The position numbers were made by a program, and so were the translations under genes. Of a DNA stretch of 64,000 bases, positions 960-11,389 are shown piece after piece. The stretch is from contig OZ223209.1 of NCBI GenBank assembly GCA_965140415.1, positions 608,001 to 672,000 on the forward strand. Direction: 5' to 3'. How positions within the stretch are numbered: the first letter of the stretch is position 1; each line of letters begins with the position of its first letter. This stretch comes from Myxococcota bacterium (GTDB lineage: Bacteria > Myxococcota_A > SURF-8). The notes under the pieces were generated by a model that did no database searches, was not told where the DNA came from, and saw only the letters and a program-made list of their open reading frames with translations.

Positions 960-997
960 CCAAACAGAACCAAAACATGCTAGCTTGCCATGTCAGA

Positions 998-1013
998 TGG
1001 TATGGAACTTGCT
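998..1013 (+). promoter_or_regulatory. sigma54 (-24/-12) promoter
   Basis: TGGTAT-GGAAC-TTGCT (GG-N10-GC), about 55 nt before ATG 1069. Confidence 0.55.
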
Positions 1014-1068
1014 TATTCTGTTATCCGTATGGGAACGGTGGGTTTCGAATCGATTGGTGAGAGTCAAG

Positions 1069-3162
1069 ATGAACGCTGTAGAAACCATCTTAAAAAACAG
1101 GCTGCACACGCAATGGGTCGTGCTGTGGCTGATTGCCGCCCTGCTGTTGCTGTTCTCTGGTTGCGGCACGAGCAGTGATTCGGAAAATTCCAGCATGGAC
1201 GACGGCGGCGATTACGATTATTACGAAGAATACGGCAACGACCAAGCTACCGTTGGTGATGGCGATTCGGATTCTCCAGGTATCAGTGACCCGGAAGGAC
1301 CGCTCTCCCCAGCCGACAATGATAAGGGCACGGCCTATGCGCCCATGCTCTCCGACCCGGCTCAACTGACCGAGGTTTTCGGTGAAGAACTGCAAAGCAG
1401 CAACATCGATTACGGACAAAGCCTGCCGGGAAGCTTCGAAGAGCAAGTCCCCTTTGTGCCTTACACCTTCGATGCGCTGGCCGGAGCGCGGGTTACCATC
1501 AGTCTGCAAGTTGCCACTGGCGAGGCGGACCCGGTGTTGTACCTTTACGGCCCCAAATCCAATAACGGGCTCTGGGGAGACGCCTTGGCCGTCAACGACG
1601 ACTACGACGACAGTATCAACGCCCTGATCTTCGATTTCCCCATCTCGCGTAGCGGAAGTTATCTGATTCTGGCGACCCGCTTGGCGTTAACCGATGAAGC
1701 CGCCTTCGAACTTTCACTGGGTTGTCGCAATCTCTGCCAGGAACCTGTCTGCCCCGATTTGACCTGCCAGGGCTATTGCAACGCCGGGCTGCTCTCCGAC
1801 AGCAACGGCTGTACCAGTTGCCAGTGCAGCGGTTCCACATCCAGTTGGAACGGCGGCAATTTGGAAGATCCCTGTTCCTCCGATGACGATTGCAACGACG
1901 AGTTGATCTGTCTGGAAGGTTTCTGTGCGGACGTGGAAGCCCCCTACAACCCCTGCGAATGTCCCGGAATTTACGATCCGGTTTGCGGCCAGGATGGCAT
2001 TACCTACGCCAATGCCTGCGAGGCGGAATGTTACGGCAACACCACTTACAGTGCGGGCGAATGCGAAATCGACGGCGGCTGCACGTTCGATTCCGACTGC
2101 CCGGTCGATGAATTCTGTGTCGATGGTTTTTGCACCGCGCCCGCCGTCGGTTGCGGCTGCGAAGACGAAGAGCCTTTCCCGGTTTGCGGCGAGGACGGAA
2201 TCAGTTATCCTAGCGCCTGTGAAGCCGCCTGCGTCGACGTGGAAATCTGGTACGAAGGCGATTGCGACTGCCGCCCGGTCTGTGCCACGGACGGTCAAGG
2301 CTGGCAGAATTCCTGTACGCTGATGGCCATCAACTCGCAGAACTGCGAAGGCTGTCAGACCGTTTGCCGCAATGGCGGCACGGACAGCGAAGGCTGGTAT
2401 TCCAACTGCGATAACAGCCTGTTGGAACTGGCCGACTGCACCAGCGGCTGTGGTTGCCCCGAAGTGTGGCAGCCGGTCTGCGGCGAAGATGGCGTAACCT
2501 ATGAGAATCTGTGCCAGGCCCAATGCGCCGGAGCCTCGATGCTGTACAGCGGCGAATGCGATTTCTCGCGCGTTGGCTGCCAGAGCGATGACGACTGTCC
2601 CAGTGGATATCTGTGCGATCTTTCCGCTACGGATTGCGTTTCCGACCCGACAGGCTGCGGAGGAATCTGCATTTTGCCCAACGAAGCGTTTGCCTGTATC
2701 AGCGATCTGGATTGTCCCGAAGGACAGGTCTGCGAGTTCTGGTACGGTTCCGCCCAGGGAATCTGTAGCGAAGCCACCGACAGCCAGAGTTGCCAGATCA
2801 CCGGTTGTCACGGCGAACTGTGCCTGTCTTATCCTACGGGTTCTTCCTGTAACACCTACCAGCCGGAATTTGCCTGTCTGGCTTTTACCAGCTGTGAAGC
2901 CGTCAACGGTAGCTGTGGCTGGCAGGCCCTCGGCCCGGAATACGACCAGTGCATGACCGAGATTGCAAACGCCATGACCTGCACGGTCGACCGCGACTGC
3001 ATGGACACGCAATTCTGCCTTCGCGGCGTCTGCACGACCAGCGAATGCGTCTGCCCGACCGAAAGTGCGCCGATCTGCGGTAACGATGGCAACAGCTACG
3101 ACAATGCCTGCTTGGCAATTTGCGCCGGAGTCCAGGTCTTGCACGAAGATGCCTGCCCTTAA
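1069..3162 (+). CDS. Cys-rich lipoprotein with a PPC-like domain, four Kazal-type repeats, an antistasin-like motif and an eight-Cys-cluster module
   Basis: Lipobox LFSG-C; four PxCGxDGxxYxxxCxAxC units; CPDLTC..C..G...DSNGCTSCQC; CQITGCHGELC...CGW. Start moved to ATG 1069, downstream of the sigma54-like promoter. Confidence 0.85.
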   Translation: MNAVETILKNRLHTQWVVLWLIAALLLLFSGCGTSSDSENSSMDDGGDYDYYEEYGNDQATVGDGDSDSPGISDPEGPLSPADNDKGTAYAPMLSDPAQLTEVFGEELQSSNIDYGQSLPGSFEEQVPFVPYTFDALAGARVTISLQVATGEADPVLYLYGPKSNNGLWGDALAVNDDYDDSINALIFDFPISRSGSYLILATRLALTDEAAFELSLGCRNLCQEPVCPDLTCQGYCNAGLLSDSNGCTSCQCSGSTSSWNGGNLEDPCSSDDDCNDELICLEGFCADVEAPYNPCECPGIYDPVCGQDGITYANACEAECYGNTTYSAGECEIDGGCTFDSDCPVDEFCVDGFCTAPAVGCGCEDEEPFPVCGEDGISYPSACEAACVDVEIWYEGDCDCRPVCATDGQGWQNSCTLMAINSQNCEGCQTVCRNGGTDSEGWYSNCDNSLLELADCTSGCGCPEVWQPVCGEDGVTYENLCQAQCAGASMLYSGECDFSRVGCQSDDDCPSGYLCDLSATDCVSDPTGCGGICILPNEAFACISDLDCPEGQVCEFWYGSAQGICSEATDSQSCQITGCHGELCLSYPTGSSCNTYQPEFACLAFTSCEAVNGSCGWQALGPEYDQCMTEIANAMTCTVDRDCMDTQFCLRGVCTTSECVCPTESAPICGNDGNSYDNACLAICAGVQVLHEDACP

Positions 3163-5402
3163 CGACGAGAGCGCAGCCACCAGCCCAAGGCCGTTACACC
3201 CAACAGCACACCAACATATTGCAGCGTTTTCTCACATCCGATCATGGGAATGAACACCACACCCACCAACAGGACCGCAACCGCTGCCGCTGCATGATCC
3301 AGGAATCTGGCGAAGCCCGCCCAGAAACCGACCTGCTTCGAAGCTTCGTTTGCCATCAGGCTGGCCGCCAGTTGAAAGCCCGCCCCGGCAATTGTGGCCG
3401 TGATTAACAGAACAGCAAACAGCGATGTCGTCGCCACCCACTCTGGCCAGTTGGCGGACAACAGTGGCAAAACCCACCACAGCAGCAGTATCATCCCCGC
3501 AGCCATCAGCGCCAGCCACCTGATCGAAGCCGCCGGATCAGTCGAGCGGGTGGCCCGGCTTTCACCCAGATGCGCCCCCAGCCCCAACCCGGCCATATAG
3601 GCTGCCACCAGTACGCCCAGCCGGTAGTGCAACTGGCCATACGCCATTTGATACACGTTCATCAGCACAACTTCGGTCAGTATACCTCCGGCTCCCAGCG
3701 CACCAATCCACAAACCGCAGAGCAGCCCGGCATCTGCGCGTCTTGCACCCCAAAGAGAAAGCAGCGACCACAGCAGCAGGGCACCAGCCAGTAGAAAATC
3801 AAGATGCGTCTGCAACCACCGCAGCACAGAGAGCAAACCCGGTTCGAAGCGAGCACCATAGAGCGCCATGCTGTATCCCGGAGCACTGGGCGACAGATCC
3901 GTATTGGCTGTAACCTCGCGTTGTCTGACGTTTTCCATCGCCTGATGAAGCATGTCCAGTCTGCTAGCAGAAAGCGCGTCATCGAGCCAGGCGGCATTCA
4001 TCTGTTTCGGTATGATTCCGGCCCGCCGTACATTCGATGCGATTGTCTCTGCATCGGTCGTCAGTTTACCGTCGCTGCAAATCAACCAGTAGCGTCGTAA
4101 AGGTAAAATGGAACAGGTTTCAAATTCCGATGTTGCCGCCATTTCAACACTCGCCAGCAGATCCGCCTCCGGCGCAGAAATGTAATTGGCCGGTTCACTC
4201 AGGCCGACGAGCAGAATTCCGGCGCGATGTTCCCGGCTTTCCCGGCATAATGCCGTATGAGCCAGCGAAAAGAATTCCCGCGTCATCAGGCGACTGGCCA
4301 GAATGCTCCCCGGTTCGCCACCGGGAACGATGAGCAGATCCTGCTCTTTCAGATTCTCGGAGATCAACACACGGCGGGGATCGTCTTCCATTACGATGAA
4401 ACGTCCTGCTGAGTTCTGTTCTTGGCCGCAGTAGCGTGCTTCCCATTCGACGAAGAGTGGATCGGGTTGCACGTATTGAACGGAGAGTTCCGGAAGTTGC
4501 AGTAATCCCTTCGCCGCCTGGGCGGAGCCTTGCAGAACAAGGGCGTGGCTCGAATTGGGATTCTGCCCGGCAGCCAGCACCGCCAATTCCTCCGCCGACT
4601 GCCACTCCCCGCACTGCACCGCCGGACGATGTCCCCGGTAGATCGTGACCTGTTCGCCGTCCTGCACTGCGCCCAGTGTGCCGAAGCGGTTTTCCGCGCG
4701 TGCGATCAAAGGCAGATTTCGCACGGGAGATCCGTAGCGGTCGGGCAATAGCAACGCCGCGACCAGTATTATTCCCGTGACCGATAGCAGGATGACCATT
4801 TGTCGGTGTGAGCGATTTTCCGGCAAGGCAAGCCACGCCAGAAGCGCACACGTCATGACCAGCGACACCCACACCGCATCAGAACCCGCTATATCCAATA
4901 ACCAGGTGGCAAGTACGATTCCACCCAGCGCCGATCCCAACGCTTCCCACAGGCTGACATGTCGCAGCGACTCGCCGAAACGCCGACGTTGCGCGGATAC
5001 GTATAGCGAAAACAATGCACCCAGCGACAAGGCCGCGCCCGACACCGCAATGAATGATGTGAGCGTCGCCAGTAATGGCGAGGCGGAGAATCCGGCAGGC
5101 AGTCCCAGCCAGTCCGGACCACCGCGCTCGGCCAATAGCCAACCGAATAGCGCACCCGCTGGCGTGGCTAAAGACAGGCCGAAAATCCAGCCATGCAGGT
5201 TTTTGACTTGCACGGCCAGTCGCCCGGCTAATAACGCCGCGCTGCCGGTCACCACCAGCCAGGCGCATAAACCGATCCCGATCAGCAGTTCATTGTCCCC
5301 GAAGCGAGATAGCAATGTCCGCAGTAACAGCACCTGCGCAGCCACGGATGCTGCGCCGAAGGCGGCAATGGAGTATGACGACCCTGGCGAACGGGACGGC
5401 AT
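3159..5402 (-). CDS. Fused multi-pass membrane / spermidine-synthase-like protein
   Basis: N- and C-terminal TM bundles around a degenerate aminopropyltransferase-like core (ENRFG, LMTREFF, NTDLSP); last gene of the AmmeMemoRadiSam operon. Confidence 0.8.
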   Translation of the reverse strand: MPSRSPGSSYSIAAFGAASVAAQVLLLRTLLSRFGDNELLIGIGLCAWLVVTGSAALLAGRLAVQVKNLHGWIFGLSLATPAGALFGWLLAERGGPDWLGLPAGFSASPLLATLTSFIAVSGAALSLGALFSLYVSAQRRRFGESLRHVSLWEALGSALGGIVLATWLLDIAGSDAVWVSLVMTCALLAWLALPENRSHRQMVILLSVTGIILVAALLLPDRYGSPVRNLPLIARAENRFGTLGAVQDGEQVTIYRGHRPAVQCGEWQSAEELAVLAAGQNPNSSHALVLQGSAQAAKGLLQLPELSVQYVQPDPLFVEWEARYCGQEQNSAGRFIVMEDDPRRVLISENLKEQDLLIVPGGEPGSILASRLMTREFFSLAHTALCRESREHRAGILLVGLSEPANYISAPEADLLASVEMAATSEFETCSILPLRRYWLICSDGKLTTDAETIASNVRRAGIIPKQMNAAWLDDALSASRLDMLHQAMENVRQREVTANTDLSPSAPGYSMALYGARFEPGLLSVLRWLQTHLDFLLAGALLLWSLLSLWGARRADAGLLCGLWIGALGAGGILTEVVLMNVYQMAYGQLHYRLGVLVAAYMAGLGLGAHLGESRATRSTDPAASIRWLALMAAGMILLLWWVLPLLSANWPEWVATTSLFAVLLITATIAGAGFQLAASLMANEASKQVGFWAGFARFLDHAAAAVAVLLVGVVFIPMIGCEKTLQYVGVLLGVTALGWWLRSRR

Positions 5403-5411
5403 CAGATGCGC

Positions 5412-7109
5412 TTACTTATTGGAATGGTCGGCGTCGCTGAAAATAATCCCCTGGAATTTGAAGATCGTCACGCCCTTGTCCTTCCAGGCGTCCATGGGCA
5501 ATCCGGCTTTCTGGGCGGTGTGCTGGAGGAATTGCTCCCGATCCCAGCACCATTCCACCGGAACTTGAGGTAGCAGCAGACCGCGATACGGACCTTTCTG
5601 CATCATCAAACCGTCGCGACCGATTTGAATCTTGTTGACATCTTCCACCGGTTGCAGGGGAGTCAGCACCGTGACCTCATAGGAAAGCCGTTCCAACTCG
5701 CTTTCATCCACCGGCGGAAAACGCGGGTCCTGACTGGCGGCGGCAATGGCCATATCGCGCACGCACTCCCAAAGCGGGACATGCGCCTCGGTGTGCCCGA
5801 TGCAGCCACGCAGGTTGTTGTCGATTTTCAGCGTAACAAAGGCGGCCCCTTTTTGCAGCAGCAACTCATCCTCGATCTCGAAAGCCGGTTTACTGCGCGT
5901 CACGACGTAGCTGCTCACCGAACGTCGGGCGATGGCCAGCAGGCGAGCCTGTTGTTCCGTACTAAGCGTGTACTCCATCGTATTTCCTTTCTCGCGAAGT
6001 TGCTGCACGGTCTTGGGGGAACGCTGAAACGCCAGCGCCGCATACCCGACCACGCTCTTTTTCTCTCCGAAAGTATCCCCGCTGTTACGCATATCCAGCA
6101 ACAACGGCACTTTCTTTCCCAGTTGCTGCTGAGCCAGGATCATCGACAATACCGGCATCGGTCCGCAGATCTCCACTTTCTTGTCTACGCTCGCTGCCAA
6201 TAGTCCGGGACCGTTCAGGTTTCGAATCAGATCGACAGCGTCTTTGTCCATGCGATTGGCGGTGCGATAGGGATGAAAATGGGATAGATCGGTGGTTGCG
6301 ATAACCAGGGTATCGCGATGAATCGCATAGCGCTGCGCCAATACATCCGCCAGCATCTCCGCCAGGCCGGGATTGCTTTGAATGCCGAACATCAAGGGCA
6401 CGATCTTCGCTTTCGGCAGCACCGTTTGAATGAACGGCAGTTGCACTTCCAGCGAGTGCTCCCCGCCAAAAAGCGAACGCTGCTCCCGAATGAAGGGATA
6501 GCCATCCAACAGTTTGCGCACTTCTTCCACATCGACCGGCAGATCGCCAAGCGGCGTGCGGAAAGCCGGAGCGGTCGTTGTACCGACGGCTTGCAGTTTA
6601 AAGTTTCCATCCGGCGTAAAGGGATCGTGCGTAAAAGCCACCACGACAACGCGGTGGATGTCGCGCCCCTGCAACTGCCGATAAGCGGATGCCGCCACCG
6701 GACCGGAAAACACGTATCCGGCGTGTGGTACGAGAATTCCCCAGAGTTCGCCGATGGTCTGCGGCTTGGCCTTTTCCAGTAAATCACTCACCATGCGGCG
6801 CAGTTCGGTCGCATCGCCAGGATAGAAACCGCCCGCCATACTGGGGAGTATCGGAGGTTCTGCCGGCGTATTCTCTTTTGCGTCATTCGGGGAAGCGGAA
6901 GTAGAAGAAACAGAGTTCGTTGGGGTTGGTTTTTTTGCTTCCGCTGTCGTAGCTGCCAAAGCGGTGTTTCTATTGGCAGTGACTTCCGATTTCTGCGGCG
7001 TAGCCGGAGCTTCGCAGGCAAAACAAAACACAAGCGCCAAGACGGCTAGCAGCGCCGCCCATTTATTAATGTCGATTCGATAGTTGCGTTGTACCCGAGT
7101 CATGCTCAT
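5412..7109 (-). CDS. amrB: AmmeMemoRadiSam protein B/A fusion (MEMO1 + AMMECR1 domains) with N-terminal lipoprotein signal
   Basis: MEMO motifs AGGFYP, PHAGYVFSG, EHSLEVQLPF, DLSHF, VVGY; AMMECR1 motifs FVTL..LRGCIG, DPRF, LLLPQV; lipobox CFA-C. Start is 7109 or 7103. Confidence 0.9.
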   Translation of the reverse strand: MSMTRVQRNYRIDINKWAALLAVLALVFCFACEAPATPQKSEVTANRNTALAATTAEAKKPTPTNSVSSTSASPNDAKENTPAEPPILPSMAGGFYPGDATELRRMVSDLLEKAKPQTIGELWGILVPHAGYVFSGPVAASAYRQLQGRDIHRVVVVAFTHDPFTPDGNFKLQAVGTTTAPAFRTPLGDLPVDVEEVRKLLDGYPFIREQRSLFGGEHSLEVQLPFIQTVLPKAKIVPLMFGIQSNPGLAEMLADVLAQRYAIHRDTLVIATTDLSHFHPYRTANRMDKDAVDLIRNLNGPGLLAASVDKKVEICGPMPVLSMILAQQQLGKKVPLLLDMRNSGDTFGEKKSVVGYAALAFQRSPKTVQQLREKGNTMEYTLSTEQQARLLAIARRSVSSYVVTRSKPAFEIEDELLLQKGAAFVTLKIDNNLRGCIGHTEAHVPLWECVRDMAIAAASQDPRFPPVDESELERLSYEVTVLTPLQPVEDVNKIQIGRDGLMMQKGPYRGLLLPQVPVEWCWDREQFLQHTAQKAGLPMDAWKDKGVTIFKFQGIIFSDADHSNK

Positions 7110-7131
7110 ACTCCCGTTGTCGCACCCTGTT

Positions 7132-7341
7132 TCATCGGGTCTTTTTGCTTTTACGCTTATAGTGCCTAGCAGGATGATCCGAAAGGCTTCCATACGCAAG
7201 CAGATCGCTCAACTCTTGGAGTGATTCGTCTTTACTCGTATGCCGCGTCTTATGCGAATTCAAACCCAGTGTGACCCCCGCAATTCCGGCTAATGCCGTC
7301 TTCAGAAATCCTCTACGATTGCTCGCCAAAAAGCCTTTCAT
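7132..7341 (-). CDS. Small Tat-signal protein with C-terminal GSLSDHPARHY motif
   Basis: NRRGFLK plus hydrophobic stretch; GGAG SD; fills the gap between amrS and amrB; motif shared with 8337-8558. Confidence 0.75.
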   Translation of the reverse strand: MKGFLASNRRGFLKTALAGIAGVTLGLNSHKTRHTSKDESLQELSDLLAYGSLSDHPARHYKRKSKKTR

Positions 7342-7345
7342 AAGT

Positions 7346-8313
7346 TCAACTCCAAACTCCCCGAACCGGAAATCCGCAATGTACGCAATTTCCCTTCTCC
7401 AGATGGTATTCTTTTATCCGGTAGCCGTCACGGACAACCACTACTGTACCACAAGCCGGGCAAAGCGTGTCCTGAAATTCCCTTTCACGCAAATTTCCGA
7501 CGTATACATGTTTCAAGCCGGCGTCTTTGCCACGTGCGCCGCTGCCAGTAACGTTTTTGTCGGTGTGGGCGGTAGATCGGTCAAGCGGTATTGAGGAAAG
7601 AAACGCGAAAAATGCAGCGGGGTTTCTTCGCCCAGCGTTTCCTTGATCCAGGCGCACATCTCGGCGATCATGCCCAAATCGTCATTGGCGGTTGGGACGA
7701 TCAGATTGGTGATCTCCACCAGCATCCCTTGCTTGACCATCGTTTCCAGAGCGTGCATGACCGGCTTCAGGCGGGCGTCGCAATATTCACGGTAAAAGCG
7801 GTCGTCGAAGGATTTCAAATCAACGTTGGCCCCATCGCAGATCGAGCACAGCTCCAGTAACGGTTCATGTTCGATATAACCTGCCGTAACCAGAACGTTT
7901 TTCAAACCGTTTTGTTTGGCCAGTTTGGCGGTGTCGTAGGCGTACTCGAAATAAATAACCGGATCGGTGTAGGTATAGGCAATGGACCGGCAGTGGTTGC
8001 GTTTTGCCGCCTGCACGATGGCCTGCGGGGGCATGTCGGTATTGTTCAGTTCTTCCGGGTCCGCCTGGGAAATACTCCAGTTCTGACAGAACGCGCAGTG
8101 CAGGTTGCAGCCGGCGGTAGCCAGCGAAAAGATCGGCGTGCCTGGAAGGAAGTGGTACATCGGTTTCTTTTCGACCGGATCGATATGCAACGAGCAGGGC
8201 TTGCCGTATACCAGCGTGCGCAGGTTGCCGCTCCGGTTTACACGCACCCGGCAGTTGCCGCGCTCGCCATCGACCAGCTTGCAGCGCTTGGGGCACAGGC
8301 GGCATTCCACCAT
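7346..8313 (-). pseudogene. amrS: AmmeMemoRadiSam radical SAM enzyme, interrupted by a 1-nt frameshift near 7526-7528
   Basis: CRLCPKRC, GNCRVR, DPVEKKP, GCNLHCAFCQNW, DLK, PLHFSRFFP. The frame stops at KTPA*, while the normal tail DAGLKHVYVGN...CPACG...CVHCG lies in another frame; adding one A to GCAAAGAC restores it. Could be an assembly error. Confidence 0.85.
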
Positions 8314-8336
8314 GGTCGCTTCTTGTTTCTCGCTGC

Positions 8337-8558
8337 TTATGGTGTGACCTCGTTTTCCAGCACCTCGTAATGCCGCGCCGGATAGTCGGAAAGGTTGCCG
8401 TCTTCGATCTGGCGGTCGATCAGTTCCGCATCGATTTGCCGCATCGCGGCGCGGGGCGCTTGTTCCGTGCGATCCTGATACGCCACCACCCACAGCAGCA
8501 TGACGCTCACGCACAGCACCAGTCCCAACAGGATGCGATCATGCCAGGCGCGTTTCAT
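8337..8558 (-). CDS. Small single-TM protein with C-terminal GNLSDYPARHY motif
   Basis: AGGAGG SD; ATGA overlap with the upstream stop; one TM helix; motif shared with 7132-7341. Confidence 0.75.
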   Translation of the reverse strand: MKRAWHDRILLGLVLCVSVMLLWVVAYQDRTEQAPRAAMRQIDAELIDRQIEDGNLSDYPARHYEVLENEVTP

Positions 8559-9799
8559 GACGCACCTCCTGAAGATTCGATGGACTCACGTTCCCTGTGG
8601 TGGTCTTTGCCGTGCTTTTCCTCAACCTGCGGATTGGATGTGTTTTTTATATTCGGGATCGGGATCATCGTATGCAGTTTCCCGCACAATTCCAAACAGG
8701 CTCCGCTGGGACAGAAGAAACGGCACCAGAAACGCCGAAATACAGTGGAGGCAATAAGCACCACTATGGCAAAAATCATCAAAGGAAGTGGTGTCACCCA
8801 GGTGAACAGCGAACCGAAGGGTTCGAAAGCCGCAGCCGGATTCCATAACCACACCGCCACCAGCATCACCACGGAAAACAGAATCAGCCAGCGCAGCAAA
8901 CGCAGACGAGTGATCCATACCCCGCTTGGATGCAGAGCTAGCGGTGTCAGTCGATACCCGATTTCCTGCAAGGCACCAAAGGGACACAGGCGTTCGCAGT
9001 AGACCTGTCGTCCTCCCAGCGCAAATGCGAGCGCCACCGCGAGTAGCACAAGCGGTTCAAGCTGTACACCGCCCGGTAAGCCGAGGTGCATCAGGCGGAT
9101 GAATTGCGGCATGGAAATCGAGACGTTCAGCCATAGTCCGAATACGGCGACGCTTAGTAACCATGCCGCCCTGCGCCAGGGTGTCGTGCGCCTGAATGCA
9201 GCGATAATACCGACTAGCAGCGCAAGTATAAACAACGACAGGTTAACCGGCTCGATCTGAAAACGAGCAGGTTCCGCAGGTAATGCAAAGGAAAACCCAT
9301 AGCGTGTATTGGCCGCATAGCGCGCCGCCGAAAGGATATCCACTTTAGCCGCCTCGCTGGTAATCGTCGCTCCGCTTATGGCGTCTAAATCCTCGAACGA
9401 ATCTTTCAACATGCGCCCCTTGAAGGCATTGAAAAAGCCGGAGCGGACGAGGCTGGCAAAGTAGGCCGGGGTTTCATCGTGATGCAGTGGCAACACGTTT
9501 CCGATACGGCCATCGGGTGTCACACTGACGAGCAACGACATTTCCCCGTTATAACCACGCACGACCGGAGGTACCCGGTTGCTGCTCAGCGCAACACCTT
9601 GCTCCTCATTGCCTGTCCAGCCGACCGTTAAATATGTGGTGGCGTCATCCACCTCGAAACGTTGGGCGGAGGGCAGAACCGTTTCAAAATGCTTGGTTGT
9701 GGGCTGTTGGTCATATTGTGACAGCAACTGACACGTATTGATAAAAACCAGCCCAACGACCGCAATTAGAAACAGTAATGTACCGAATTTGTTGGTCAA
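8555..9799 (-). CDS. FMN-binding + 4Fe-4S membrane electron-transfer protein (NosR/NapH-like)
   Basis: GYNG, HDETP, flavinylation motif DAISGATITS, YCERLCPFGALQE, FWCRFFCPSGA, several TM helices; AGGAG SD before TTG 9799. Confidence 0.85.
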   Translation of the reverse strand: MTNKFGTLLFLIAVVGLVFINTCQLLSQYDQQPTTKHFETVLPSAQRFEVDDATTYLTVGWTGNEEQGVALSSNRVPPVVRGYNGEMSLLVSVTPDGRIGNVLPLHHDETPAYFASLVRSGFFNAFKGRMLKDSFEDLDAISGATITSEAAKVDILSAARYAANTRYGFSFALPAEPARFQIEPVNLSLFILALLVGIIAAFRRTTPWRRAAWLLSVAVFGLWLNVSISMPQFIRLMHLGLPGGVQLEPLVLLAVALAFALGGRQVYCERLCPFGALQEIGYRLTPLALHPSGVWITRLRLLRWLILFSVVMLVAVWLWNPAAAFEPFGSLFTWVTPLPLMIFAIVVLIASTVFRRFWCRFFCPSGACLELCGKLHTMIPIPNIKNTSNPQVEEKHGKDHHRERESIESSGGAS

Positions 9800-9825
9800 T
9801 TTCGTATCTCCTGTTACGAATTCGT

Positions 9826-9853
9826 ATTGTAACCGGCTATAAATATCTGTCAA
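9826..9853 (-). promoter_or_regulatory. sigma70-type promoter of the AmmeMemoRadiSam operon
   Basis: TTGACA-16-TACAAT on the minus strand, back-to-back with a plus-strand TTGACA at 9869-9874. Confidence 0.55.
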
Positions 9854-10063
9854 GAACGAACAAAGGTGTTGACAAAACAGATTCAATCCTATACATAATC
9901 GCTTTATCGACTTTACATATCCGATTTGTTTTGCTATAAAGTAAGTGCAATCGTGATAATTGTTTCAGATTGGTTTTAAGCCTGCTCCGTGTGGCGCGGG
10001 CCACCTGTTCGGAAGGTGGCAAGCAGCAGGAAAAGAAGTGAAGTCAATCCGCAGAGCGGGGAC

Positions 10064-11389
10064 ATGCAGCAATCACTGTTTGAACAAATTCATGGGTTGG
10101 TACAACTCCGAGATCTATCGGGACGGGTGAATTACGTCTCTCCCGCCGTCGGTGATTTGCTGGGTTATCAATCGGATGAATACGCCCGACGCTTTATGGA
10201 GTTGGTTGACGGTTCTCAAGAAGTCAATTTTTATGCCCGCTCGCTTTGGAAGCAGATCCGGGAAGGAAGTTATAACGGCCCGGACGAGTTACCCGCGTAT
10301 CATTTGGAAATCCCGACCAAAACCGGCGACAACAAGATTTTTGCAGTTCGCGAGCGCTTTGTACGCGAGAACGGCGAGCGTAGCGGATTGCTGGCGATCG
10401 GCATGGATGTTACCAGCGATTTCCGCGAACGGAATGAACTGTTAGGCCAAAGCCGGGAATTGTCGGTTACCAAACATATTCAGGATTGCATCGCCAATAG
10501 CCAGGACGAGTCCGAGTTGATGAAAACCTCGCTGGAATGCATTCTCTCCCTATTTGACTATAAACGGGGAGCGGTTTACCAACTGAATCGCACGGCCAGC
10601 CAAGCCACACTCATCCATCGGCAGGGTTTTTCAAGTGGTGATGTTGAAGCGCCGAAGTCATTTGCTCCACCCAAATTGATGCTTACTTCCGTTGCCGATA
10701 AACGAGCCAAGGCGATTTTGTTCGCTCCCGGCGATACCTGGCTGGAGCCAGTAGGCAGTATTGGAGAAAACCTGACCGGCCTGTTGCTGTTCATTAATCA
10801 TGCTCCCAGCGTGTTACTGACTATGACCGGACAATCCGAGTTCAGCCGACAAACACAGCATTTACTGCAATGCGTGGGAACCTTGCTTGCACAGGCGTTG
10901 CAAAGCAGACAGCAGCGCTTCTCGCCCACAAATCCGGATATCACCGATAGCGTAACCGGCTTTTACAACAGTAACTTCGTCAACGACTTTCTCAATCGGG
11001 AAGAGAATCTCGTTTCTCGTCATAAGCGCAGCGCCAGTGTCGTAATGTTGAATGCAAATGAAATTGCTCGAAACTTCAAGAGAGATTCTGAAGCACCATG
11101 GCGCAGTTTTGGGCAGCAACTCACTCACAGCGTTCGTTCCACCGATCTGGTGGCTCATTACAATGAAGATGCCTTGATGATCTACCTGCCCGAAACCGGT
11201 CGGCGAGGATCGGAAATCGTTCTCGACCGCTTATCCAAGCAGGGAATATTTAAAGTCGCTACGAAAACACAGGATAAATTCCCGATTTGCTCCGCCTCAA
11301 CGGAAACCAGCGCCAAACGTCTGCGCACTTTGGTTCACGAAGCGGCCATCGCCATTGCAACACCCCGGCGCAAGCCCATCGAGATCTAA
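10064..11389 (+). CDS. PAS-GAF-degenerate GGDEF protein
   Basis: PAS (YVSPAVGDLLGY...DVT), GAF-like middle, DSVTGFYN, and RSTDLVAHYNEDAL in place of RxxDxxxRxGGDEF. Confidence 0.75.
   Translation: MQQSLFEQIHGLVQLRDLSGRVNYVSPAVGDLLGYQSDEYARRFMELVDGSQEVNFYARSLWKQIREGSYNGPDELPAYHLEIPTKTGDNKIFAVRERFVRENGERSGLLAIGMDVTSDFRERNELLGQSRELSVTKHIQDCIANSQDESELMKTSLECILSLFDYKRGAVYQLNRTASQATLIHRQGFSSGDVEAPKSFAPPKLMLTSVADKRAKAILFAPGDTWLEPVGSIGENLTGLLLFINHAPSVLLTMTGQSEFSRQTQHLLQCVGTLLAQALQSRQQRFSPTNPDITDSVTGFYNSNFVNDFLNREENLVSRHKRSASVVMLNANEIARNFKRDSEAPWRSFGQQLTHSVRSTDLVAHYNEDALMIYLPETGRRGSEIVLDRLSKQGIFKVATKTQDKFPICSASTETSAKRLRTLVHEAAIAIATPRRKPIEI

Follow-up and report, generated by a model that had tools for sequence, protein, structure and literature searches.

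A short AmrS enzyme and two candidate adaptors carrying its N-terminal strand in a Myxococcota AmmeMemoRadiSam operon

The stretch of DNA studied here, called the window, covers 64,000 nucleotides of a Myxococcota bacterium (assembly GCA_965140415.1, contig OZ223209.1, positions 608,001 to 672,000). It carries an amrS gene, for the radical S-adenosylmethionine (SAM) enzyme of the AmmeMemoRadiSam system, whose product starts abruptly and which lies between two very small genes that share an 11-residue motif. The question raised by this locus is what two mini-proteins with a common motif do on either side of an enzyme that lacks its own N-terminal segment. Judging by sequence homology, the motif is a strand that full-length AmrS enzymes have in cis at their N-terminus, and the split arrangement is kept in this order and in at least four other phyla. 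We consider it likely that the split AmrS and its two adaptors constitute a membrane-associated, probably extracytoplasmic AmmeMemoRadiSam system. The features on which this reading is built are the following.

8337..8558, minus strand: 73-amino-acid membrane mini-protein, with one transmembrane helix, a conserved helix R-x-ID...ID-x-QI and GNLSDYPARHY
8367..8399, minus strand: motif copy 1, GNLSDYPARHY, in the 73-amino-acid protein
7346..8313, minus strand: amrS, AmmeMemoRadiSam radical SAM enzyme, short type, frameshifted (TIGR04337)
7537..7545, minus strand: approximate site of the amrS frameshift, within GTGGCAAAGACGCC read on the minus strand
7132..7341, minus strand: 69-amino-acid mini-protein with a twin-arginine translocation (Tat) signal, SNRRGFLK, followed by a hydrophobic region, a linker and GSLSDHPARHY
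7159..7191, minus strand: motif copy 2, GSLSDHPARHY, in the 69-amino-acid protein

The missing N-terminus of AmrS and the shared motif

AmrS starts at the ATG at 8313 (MVECRLCP). The gene is read in two overlapping open reading frames (ORFs), 7513–8313 and 7346–7657, which match the AmrS family profile TIGR04337 with 324.5 bits (profile positions 12–274 of 349) and 57.5 bits (positions 239–333), respectively; the first alone exceeds the family cut-off of 220. Because the match begins at profile position 12 (7 in a six-frame search), the enzyme is not full-length and, by this alignment, its first 11 or so profile positions are missing, as the initial annotation had proposed from the abrupt start at MVECRLCP. 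The radical-SAM and N-terminal Cys motifs are present, the Pfam hits are limited to Radical_SAM and Fer4_12, and AmrS has no signal peptide of its own. With the NCBIfam and Pfam profiles no maturase family scored over its cut-off, and no SPASM/twitch or peptide-recognition domain was detected.

The two ORFs result from a one-base frameshift near 7537–7545, so that amrS has no single intact reading frame in the window; they correspond approximately to residues 10–270 and 273–329 of the intact orthologue in the relative G004. Over 7100–8700 the contigs of two sequencing runs, which belong to the same study, show no difference from the window, frameshift included. The frameshift is therefore present in the DNA as sequenced, and a sequencing error was set aside on the same grounds, with the reservation that the two runs are possibly the assembly's own source and hence that their agreement is not independent. 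All eight short-AmrS orthologues in the order have an intact frame. Given the frameshift, the system may currently be inactive in this particular genome.

The 73-amino-acid protein has a single hydrophobic helix at about residues 4–22, as deduced from hydropathy, and ends with ...GNLSDYPARHYEVLENEVTP, while the 69-amino-acid protein ends with ...GSLSDHPARHYKRKSKKTR. The latter has a motif of the S/T-R-R-x-F-L-K type and, after it, a hydrophobic stretch (SNRRGFLKTALAGIAGVTLGL), as expected of a Tat signal, and matches the Tat-signal model TIGR01409 with 21 bits, above the cut-off of 16.7, and Pfam PF10518 with 21.8 bits, slightly under the cut-off of 22.7. Both ORFs are thus where the initial annotation had placed them, on the minus strand on either side of amrS, and a recount gave the same figures for their motifs: 9 of the 11 residues are common (23 of the 33 bases), and 8 of these 9 residues are encoded by different codons, the only identical one being the CTT of Leu. 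The motif has been retained across synonymous changes, in agreement with the proposal that its conservation acts at the protein level. In a six-frame translation of the 5.98-Mb genome (11,951,510 residues) LSD.PARH[YFW] occurs exactly twice, at these two motifs, compared with 0.004 occurrences expected from residue frequencies, and a search of this genome for more members of the two mini-protein families gave none. The possibility that the 73-amino-acid ORF is recoded or fused in frame with amrS was rejected: the two are in different frames, they are separated by a 23-base spacer and the spacing varies in relatives.

The origin of the motif is suggested by the full-length enzymes, in which E/P-A-x-aromatic-aromatic lies about 11 residues ahead of the first Cys. 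The genome's second, unlinked AmrS carries EARWYKK in cis at this place (MKEARWYKKEEGGRVRC), and the AmrS of G012 combines a Tat-like start and the segment in one chain, MKRRDFIK...PARFYKKLSRNRVQC (N-terminal sequence MKRRDFIKGAAAIGLG...NMPARFYKKLSRNRVQCRLCP). In the AlphaFold2 model of the G012 enzyme, of mean predicted local distance difference test (pLDDT) 94.3 with low confidence in the signal region, YKK (39–41) and VQC (47–49) lie in consecutive strands, so that the motif forms a hairpin with the next strand. Profile–profile alignment gave the same correspondence: with hhalign, 15 Tat mini-proteins aligned with the N-termini of 23 Tat-fused AmrS at 96.9% (E 1.8e-10), with the RR and the strand motifs in register, and 11 membrane tails aligned with six N-termini of AmrS fused to a transmembrane helix at 94.1% (E 1.3e-7). 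These alignments argue that the mini-proteins carry the strand that full-length AmrS enzymes have in cis. This second AmrS of the genome, full-length and lacking a signal, is found at G000:C1:2574907-2575914 (L001), other copies lie near 5.12 Mb and 1.71 Mb, and separate AmrB-like and AmrA-like genes are also scattered over the chromosome.

Distribution of the short and full-length enzymes

Conservation was followed in nine genomes of the same family and order besides that of the window. Eight of them encode an intact short AmrS (about 330 amino acids, ..VECRLCP, matching from profile position 6–11), and G008 has only a full-length enzyme. Counting the window's genome, the membrane-tail profile matches in all nine short-AmrS genomes, and a Tat mini-ORF was found in eight of the nine: directly downstream of amrS in the window, G003, G004, G005 and G009, about 620 bases downstream in G006, unlinked in G007 and cut by a contig end in G002. 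The absence of the motif ahead of the first Cys extends to 116 of the 118 closest metagenomic homologues of the G004 enzyme (at least 54% identity), a count made on 120 listed matches with P0001, P0040 (the window's truncated product) and P0107 (306 amino acids) left out.

A wider sample consisted of 80 loci from species-representative genomes of many phyla, in 78 of which AmrS was located (it was not in L114 and L139). In most of these 78 loci AmrS carries the EA-x-aromatic-aromatic segment behind a Tat-like or other signal, which bears out the statement of the initial annotation that AmrS usually has such a segment, often after a Tat signal. A rough pattern sorted the in-cis N-termini into 33 Tat-like, 11 with a Sec-type signal or anchor and 18 with none; several loci of the last class have RR motifs by eye, so the Tat-like count is to be read as at least 33 of 78. 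A Sec-type signal or lipobox is seen on the full-length AmrS of L069, L082, L087, L094, L095, L099 and L109, which include several Omnitrophota and one Planctomycetales.

AmrS is clearly short in 11 of the 78 loci (L064, L066, L068, L071, L077, L078, L079, L085, L106, L117 and L118), as counted by inspection; pattern sorting had called L071 and L077 canonical and L101, L111, L127 and L133 short, and L098, L124, L125 and L131 were left unclassed. The 11 short loci are spread over Omnitrophota, Planctomycetota, Thermodesulfobacteriota, Nitrospirota and Magnetococcales. Each of them has a downstream mini-ORF with a Tat signal, in which the motif is clear in nine cases and divergent in L068 and L078. 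A membrane-tail copy is present in seven of them, free-standing in L064, L066, L079, L117 and L118 (in L066 about 4 kb off and on the opposite strand) and fused in L068 and L078.

When the motif profiles were run on all ORFs of the 80 loci, as called for by the idea that motif and amrS co-occur, free-standing copies were found only beside short AmrS. On these loci two small initial profiles, A1 and A2, lacked sensitivity, and a larger alignment, A5, was used for the Tat mini-proteins. It gave seven free-standing matches, all in short-AmrS loci and all seven in the training set; its matches in other loci were the N-termini of 17 long AmrS and three unrelated Tat proteins. The membrane-tail profile matched at E<1e-3 in six loci, all of them with a short AmrS. 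On these profile matches the strand appears to be supplied in cis or in trans, and not both.

The Tat mini-proteins form a sizeable family. Among 1.84 billion cluster representatives, 119 matched the Tat mini-protein profile at E <=0.001; 118 of these are 43–90 amino acids long and the remaining one is a Tat-fused AmrS. The consensus of the small clusters is LKEA[RK][FY]Y[RK]xxDHLAG, 99 of the 118 end with [L/R/M]AG, and their source names are only 'hypothetical protein' or 'twin-arginine translocation signal domain-containing protein'. Word-indexed protein searches are no gauge of family size: with the G004 Tat mini-protein as query they returned only the query itself, and with the membrane-tail alignment five proteins, at least three of which were already rows of the alignment. 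In the window the 3' region of the 69-amino-acid gene (7132–7170) is A-rich, and its product ends with ...HYKRKSKKTR where the family usually has ...DHLAG.

In a quick maximum-likelihood tree (IQ-TREE, midpoint root) of 97 AmrS cores with N-termini removed, under our own labels and with L114 and L139 left out, 21 of the 22 short enzymes form one group together with L131, with a support of 88 in the Shimodaira–Hasegawa-like approximate likelihood ratio test (SH-aLRT), below the mark of 95. The remaining short enzyme, L077, falls apart from this group, among AmrS anchored by a transmembrane helix. The split form looks mainly of one origin and spread across several phyla, perhaps with one further fission; the relatives are not independent, and we make no statistical claim on its distribution. 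In L077, from Nitrospiraceae, KFYNKL stands in frame between a stop codon and the start Met of AmrS, at the canonical motif spacing, and may be the relic of an independent fission.

The membrane adaptor and its neighbours

By ORF and profile reading of the window, amrS and the two mini-protein genes belong to a set of six packed genes on the minus strand that form one apparent operon. The other three are listed here.

8555..9886, minus strand: NosR/NapH-like membrane protein with FMN_bind and Fer4_5, likely start at about 9799
5412..7109, minus strand: fused AmrB (Memo-like)–AmrA (AMMECR1-like) protein, likely start at the ATG at 7109, with a lipoprotein-type signal ...LVFCFAC
3159..5402, minus strand: 747-amino-acid polytopic membrane protein, PABS-like from its atlas neighbours, as a lead only

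The stop of the NosR-like gene overlaps the start of the 73-amino-acid gene (ATGA at 8555–8558), and the 69-amino-acid gene begins 4 bases past the amrS stop. The NosR-like protein matches Pfam FMN_bind with 43.8 bits and Fer4_5 with 47.9 bits, and it has the flavinylation-type motif SGAT and two CX3CP motifs, CERLCP and CRFFCP. It scores 54.2 bits against NosR (NF046105, cut-off 1000) and 34.3 bits against NapH (TIGR02163, cut-off 213), and matches RnfG weakly, far under the cut-off; by its sequence it resembles the NosR and NapH families and is not filed as a member of either. It has about six transmembrane helices, and its layout deduced from hydropathy is an N-terminal anchor, the flavin mononucleotide (FMN) domain, five more helices and a C-terminus rich in K/R, where the second CX3CP lies. 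No ApbE gene is present in the operon, and two are found elsewhere in the genome.

The relation of the 73-amino-acid protein to this neighbour is seen in relatives. A NosR-like protein of 475–511 amino acids has the helix and motif as its C-terminus in G003 and G005. In G023 and G230 the tail ends a protein of 1280–1310 amino acids composed of a PABS-like part, a NosR-like module and the tail, and in G028 a fusion of the PABS-like and NosR-like parts is followed, from its stop codon on, by the tail as an ORF of its own; across G028, G023 and G230 (loci L057, L058 and L059) the PABS-like/NosR-like fusions measure 1202–1310 amino acids. The NosR-like ORF of G121, which extends past the edge of the locus at its 5' end, also terminates in the tail. 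Compared with these fusions, the 73-amino-acid protein of the window appears to be the detached C-terminal docking tail of a NosR-like protein. The initial annotation had viewed it as tethering AmrS at the membrane. A membrane adaptor with the AmrS strand is what we find, although as a piece of an electron-carrier-like protein and not as a free tether.

On which side of the membrane this tail stands can be estimated. In the 73-amino-acid protein the helix is followed by an acidic tail (5 K+R, 11 D+E), and the fused protein of G003 has 15 K+R in the loop ahead of the tail helix. The FMN domain of the NosR-like protein is one that we take to be periplasmic, as in NosR and RnfG; on this assumption, the helix count and the positive-inside rule place the tail and its motif on the same, outer side as the FMN domain.

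Binding of the membrane adaptor to AmrS was examined by co-folding. The proteins of G004 were used because the window's AmrS is broken: AmrS, with a 118-row alignment, and residues 28–72 of the membrane mini-protein, with an 11-row alignment. All three runs gave an interaction prediction score from aligned errors (ipSAE) of 0.91, against 0.07 for the highest-scoring of three controls; the partner had a pLDDT of at least 75, and contacts agreed to at least 92% between runs. The mark applied to such predictions is reached by 58 of 80 solved complexes and by 2 of 110 mismatched pairs, figures that are only a rough guide here since our own alignments were used. In the predicted interface residues 38–51 and 54–67 of the partner (GNLSDVPARHFRIP) face AmrS residues 9–14, 19–28 and 37–46, and core residues 94–101, 130–131 and 156–159 of AmrS are also touched. 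HF of the partner pairs with E11–L14 of AmrS, which is the place of the cis strand in the full-length model, so that the strand complementation anticipated by the initial annotation is what the model predicts for this pair, with the motif against the first strands of AmrS. The prediction supports binding of the membrane mini-protein to AmrS. No solved AmrS structure was found in the PDB by sequence or by fold (Foldseek), which makes it unlikely that the co-fold succeeded through a memorised structure. The nearest solved fold to the AmrS core is pyruvate formate-lyase activase (Foldseek E 1.6e-15, TM-score 0.81 on the target).

The fused AmrB–AmrA protein matches TIGR04336 with 233 bits and TIGR04335 with 185.5 bits, and Pfam Memo and AMMECR1 match it too; this one gene provides both partners (AmrA/AMMECR1 and AmrB/Memo) in the neighbourhood of AmrS. 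The AmrB–AmrA proteins of relatives have lipobox-like N-termini, ...GC, ...SC or ...AC. The 747-amino-acid protein matched no Pfam or NCBIfam family, even at E 10. In a protein atlas PF01564 is found on 26 of its 30 nearest clusters (score 0.98), a lead pointing to membrane-bound spermidine-synthase-like (PABS-domain) proteins; a protein of this kind could possibly handle a SAM-type cofactor for an exported enzyme. The genome has two TatC genes.

Outside the operon, a PAS/GGDEF protein is encoded divergently upstream of it (9989–11389, plus strand) and could be a regulator. A 725-amino-acid ORF at 985–3162 (plus strand) contains several Kazal-type protease-inhibitor domains and an antistasin-like match, unusual in a bacterium, and is overlapped by an opposite-strand ORF, 1714–3180, that belongs to no family.

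Proposed mechanism, alternatives and meaning

The missing segment of AmrS would thus be supplied in trans by two alternative adaptors, as had been proposed from the window alone, and the homology of the motif, the exclusivity of the free and fused forms, the fusions and the co-fold all support this. The mechanism that we favour is the following. Full-length AmrS has a Tat signal or a membrane helix and then the strand E/P-A-x-aromatic-aromatic, paired with the next strand V-x-C-x-L-C-P. The AmrS of the window begins just ahead of this second strand, the missing strand being encoded twice, on separate mini-proteins. The 69-amino-acid protein, with its Tat signal and strand, would associate in the cytoplasm with AmrS that is already folded and cluster-loaded, and would carry it through the Tat translocase as a hitchhiker, and the 73-amino-acid protein, which combines a membrane helix and a short helix with the strand, would dock AmrS beside its likely electron donor, the NosR-like protein. 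Binding of the Tat mini-protein, export of AmrS, hand-over between the adaptors and electron supply are the steps that we infer. A full two-adaptor relay, in which the Tat-strand protein escorts AmrS, the NosR-like tail then takes it over and the PABS-like protein perhaps handles a SAM-type cofactor, is a tentative elaboration that we regard as possible and clearly less probable than the general scheme.

Several observations weigh against an exported, two-adaptor AmrS. Both adaptors would occupy the same site on AmrS, and hence either a hand-over or two sub-populations must be assumed. Exported radical SAM chemistry needs SAM and a reductant outside, for which the PABS-like and NosR-like proteins are only candidate suppliers. 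Some related full-length AmrS have Sec-type signals or plain anchors and not Tat signals, which is puzzling if a folded iron-sulfur enzyme is to be exported. The co-fold covers the proteins of a relative and the membrane adaptor, and binding of the Tat mini-protein to AmrS is argued from homology. Finally, no Tat mini-ORF was found in the G001 genome, the 69-amino-acid protein of the window lacks the LAG C-terminus usual in its family, and amrS itself is frameshifted here.

Three other explanations of the locus were considered. The initial annotation had offered as its alternative that the mini-proteins are radical SAM substrates or precursor peptides sharing a recognition tag. Such a role would suit an enzyme whose nearest solved fold, pyruvate formate-lyase activase, acts on a peptide loop; it is also compatible with the extension of the predicted interface to core residues of AmrS, and our literature search gave no functional paper that names an AmmeMemoRadiSam substrate. 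However, in most relatives the motif is the enzyme's own N-terminal segment, which hairpins with the next strand in the AlphaFold2 model, the free and fused forms are mutually exclusive, and a large redox protein has one of the copies as its tail, an unusual place for a precursor. Moreover, past A-x-aromatic-aromatic no residue is invariant across phyla, and AmrS shows neither the SPASM or peptide-recognition domain expected of a maturase of ribosomally synthesized and post-translationally modified peptides (RiPPs) nor a match over the cut-off of any maturase family. We consider this explanation improbable. Even less credit can be given to the view that the small ORFs are non-functional rearrangement debris around a decaying amrS, which we hold to be very improbable. 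The frameshift and the atypical C-terminus of the window's Tat mini-protein fit it, but the codons of the motif have changed synonymously and its residues were kept, both ORFs recur together with an intact amrS in relatives and in other phyla, the Tat mini-proteins form a family of 118 clusters, and there is little room between the genes, as shown by the ATGA overlap and the spacer of 4 bases.

Slightly more weight, within what is still an unlikely outcome, goes to the proposal that the mini-proteins do bind AmrS but that the enzyme stays cytoplasmic, being tethered or regulated at the inner face of the membrane, or that export concerns the Tat mini-protein by itself. SAM is required by radical SAM enzymes, none of which is known to work outside the cytoplasm, and our literature search gave no such case; the non-Tat anchors of some relatives point in the same direction. 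This proposal is nevertheless difficult to reconcile with the position of the membrane tail, which the positive-inside rule and the number of helices following the FMN domain put on the outer side, with the consensus Tat signals found at the N-terminus of many related AmrS themselves (by pattern in 33 of 78, and in more by eye), and with the lipoprotein signal of the AmrB–AmrA partner.

Compared with the canonical AmmeMemoRadiSam system (TIGR04337, TIGR04336 and TIGR04335), the same three families are found here in one operon, but the first 11 or so profile positions of AmrS are on two mini-proteins, AmrB and AmrA are fused behind a lipoprotein signal, and NosR-like and PABS-like membrane proteins are added. 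Memo and AMMECR1 also have human relatives. Pyruvate formate-lyase activating enzyme (PDB 3cb8, 3c8f and 8fo0) is the nearest fold and the sole sequence match in the PDB (E 3.5e-7), with an identity of 16%; unlike AmrS, it has no Cys-rich N-terminal domain, no zinc-ribbon-like C-terminal part and no split. The NosR-like protein shares with the NosR, NapH and RnfG carriers an FMN_bind domain with an SGAT-type motif, polytopic helices and two CX3CP motifs; it differs from them in lacking a C-terminal two-cluster ferredoxin domain and, in relatives, in having an AmrS-docking tail.

The export route proposed for AmrS has precedents. The small gamma subunit of a flavin adenine dinucleotide (FAD)-dependent glucose dehydrogenase is described as a Tat hitchhiker protein (PMC6719666), and hitchhiker export, including that of hydrogenases with their small subunits, is summarised in another article (PMC10924467). 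As in these cases, a signal-less AmrS would leave the cytoplasm bound to a small, adjacently encoded twin-arginine partner. In contrast with them, the escort would be the enzyme's own detached N-terminus, a signal and one strand in 43–90 amino acids, where the known escorts are folded subunits in their own right; the strand is also present a second time, on a membrane protein, and export is a proposal here. Our literature search found no paper on AmmeMemoRadiSam function, on exported AmrS or on split AmrS, and the term 'radical SAM' is absent from the main text of a 2026 review of Tat (PMC13673990). The neighbourhood of AMMECR1, radical-SAM and dioxygenase genes was noted earlier, and RNA base modification was proposed (PMC2034487); a system located outside the cytoplasm would not fit that proposal.

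In conclusion, the locus suggests that one large branch of the AmmeMemoRadiSam family acts at or outside the membrane, and it argues against an RNA-modification role for that branch. It also provides testable handles: two peptides with about 30 soluble residues each that are predicted to complete the enzyme fold, an RR pair and a candidate electron donor. For the Tat field the arrangement, if true, would represent a minimal natural escort, a signal peptide provided in trans through a detached strand; for radical SAM enzymology it would raise the question of how SAM and electrons reach an exported enzyme. If the proposed reading is true, AmmeMemoRadiSam would be a case of radical SAM chemistry outside the cytoplasm, and its detached strand would define a mechanism by which an enzyme is first targeted and then docked through strand exchange.

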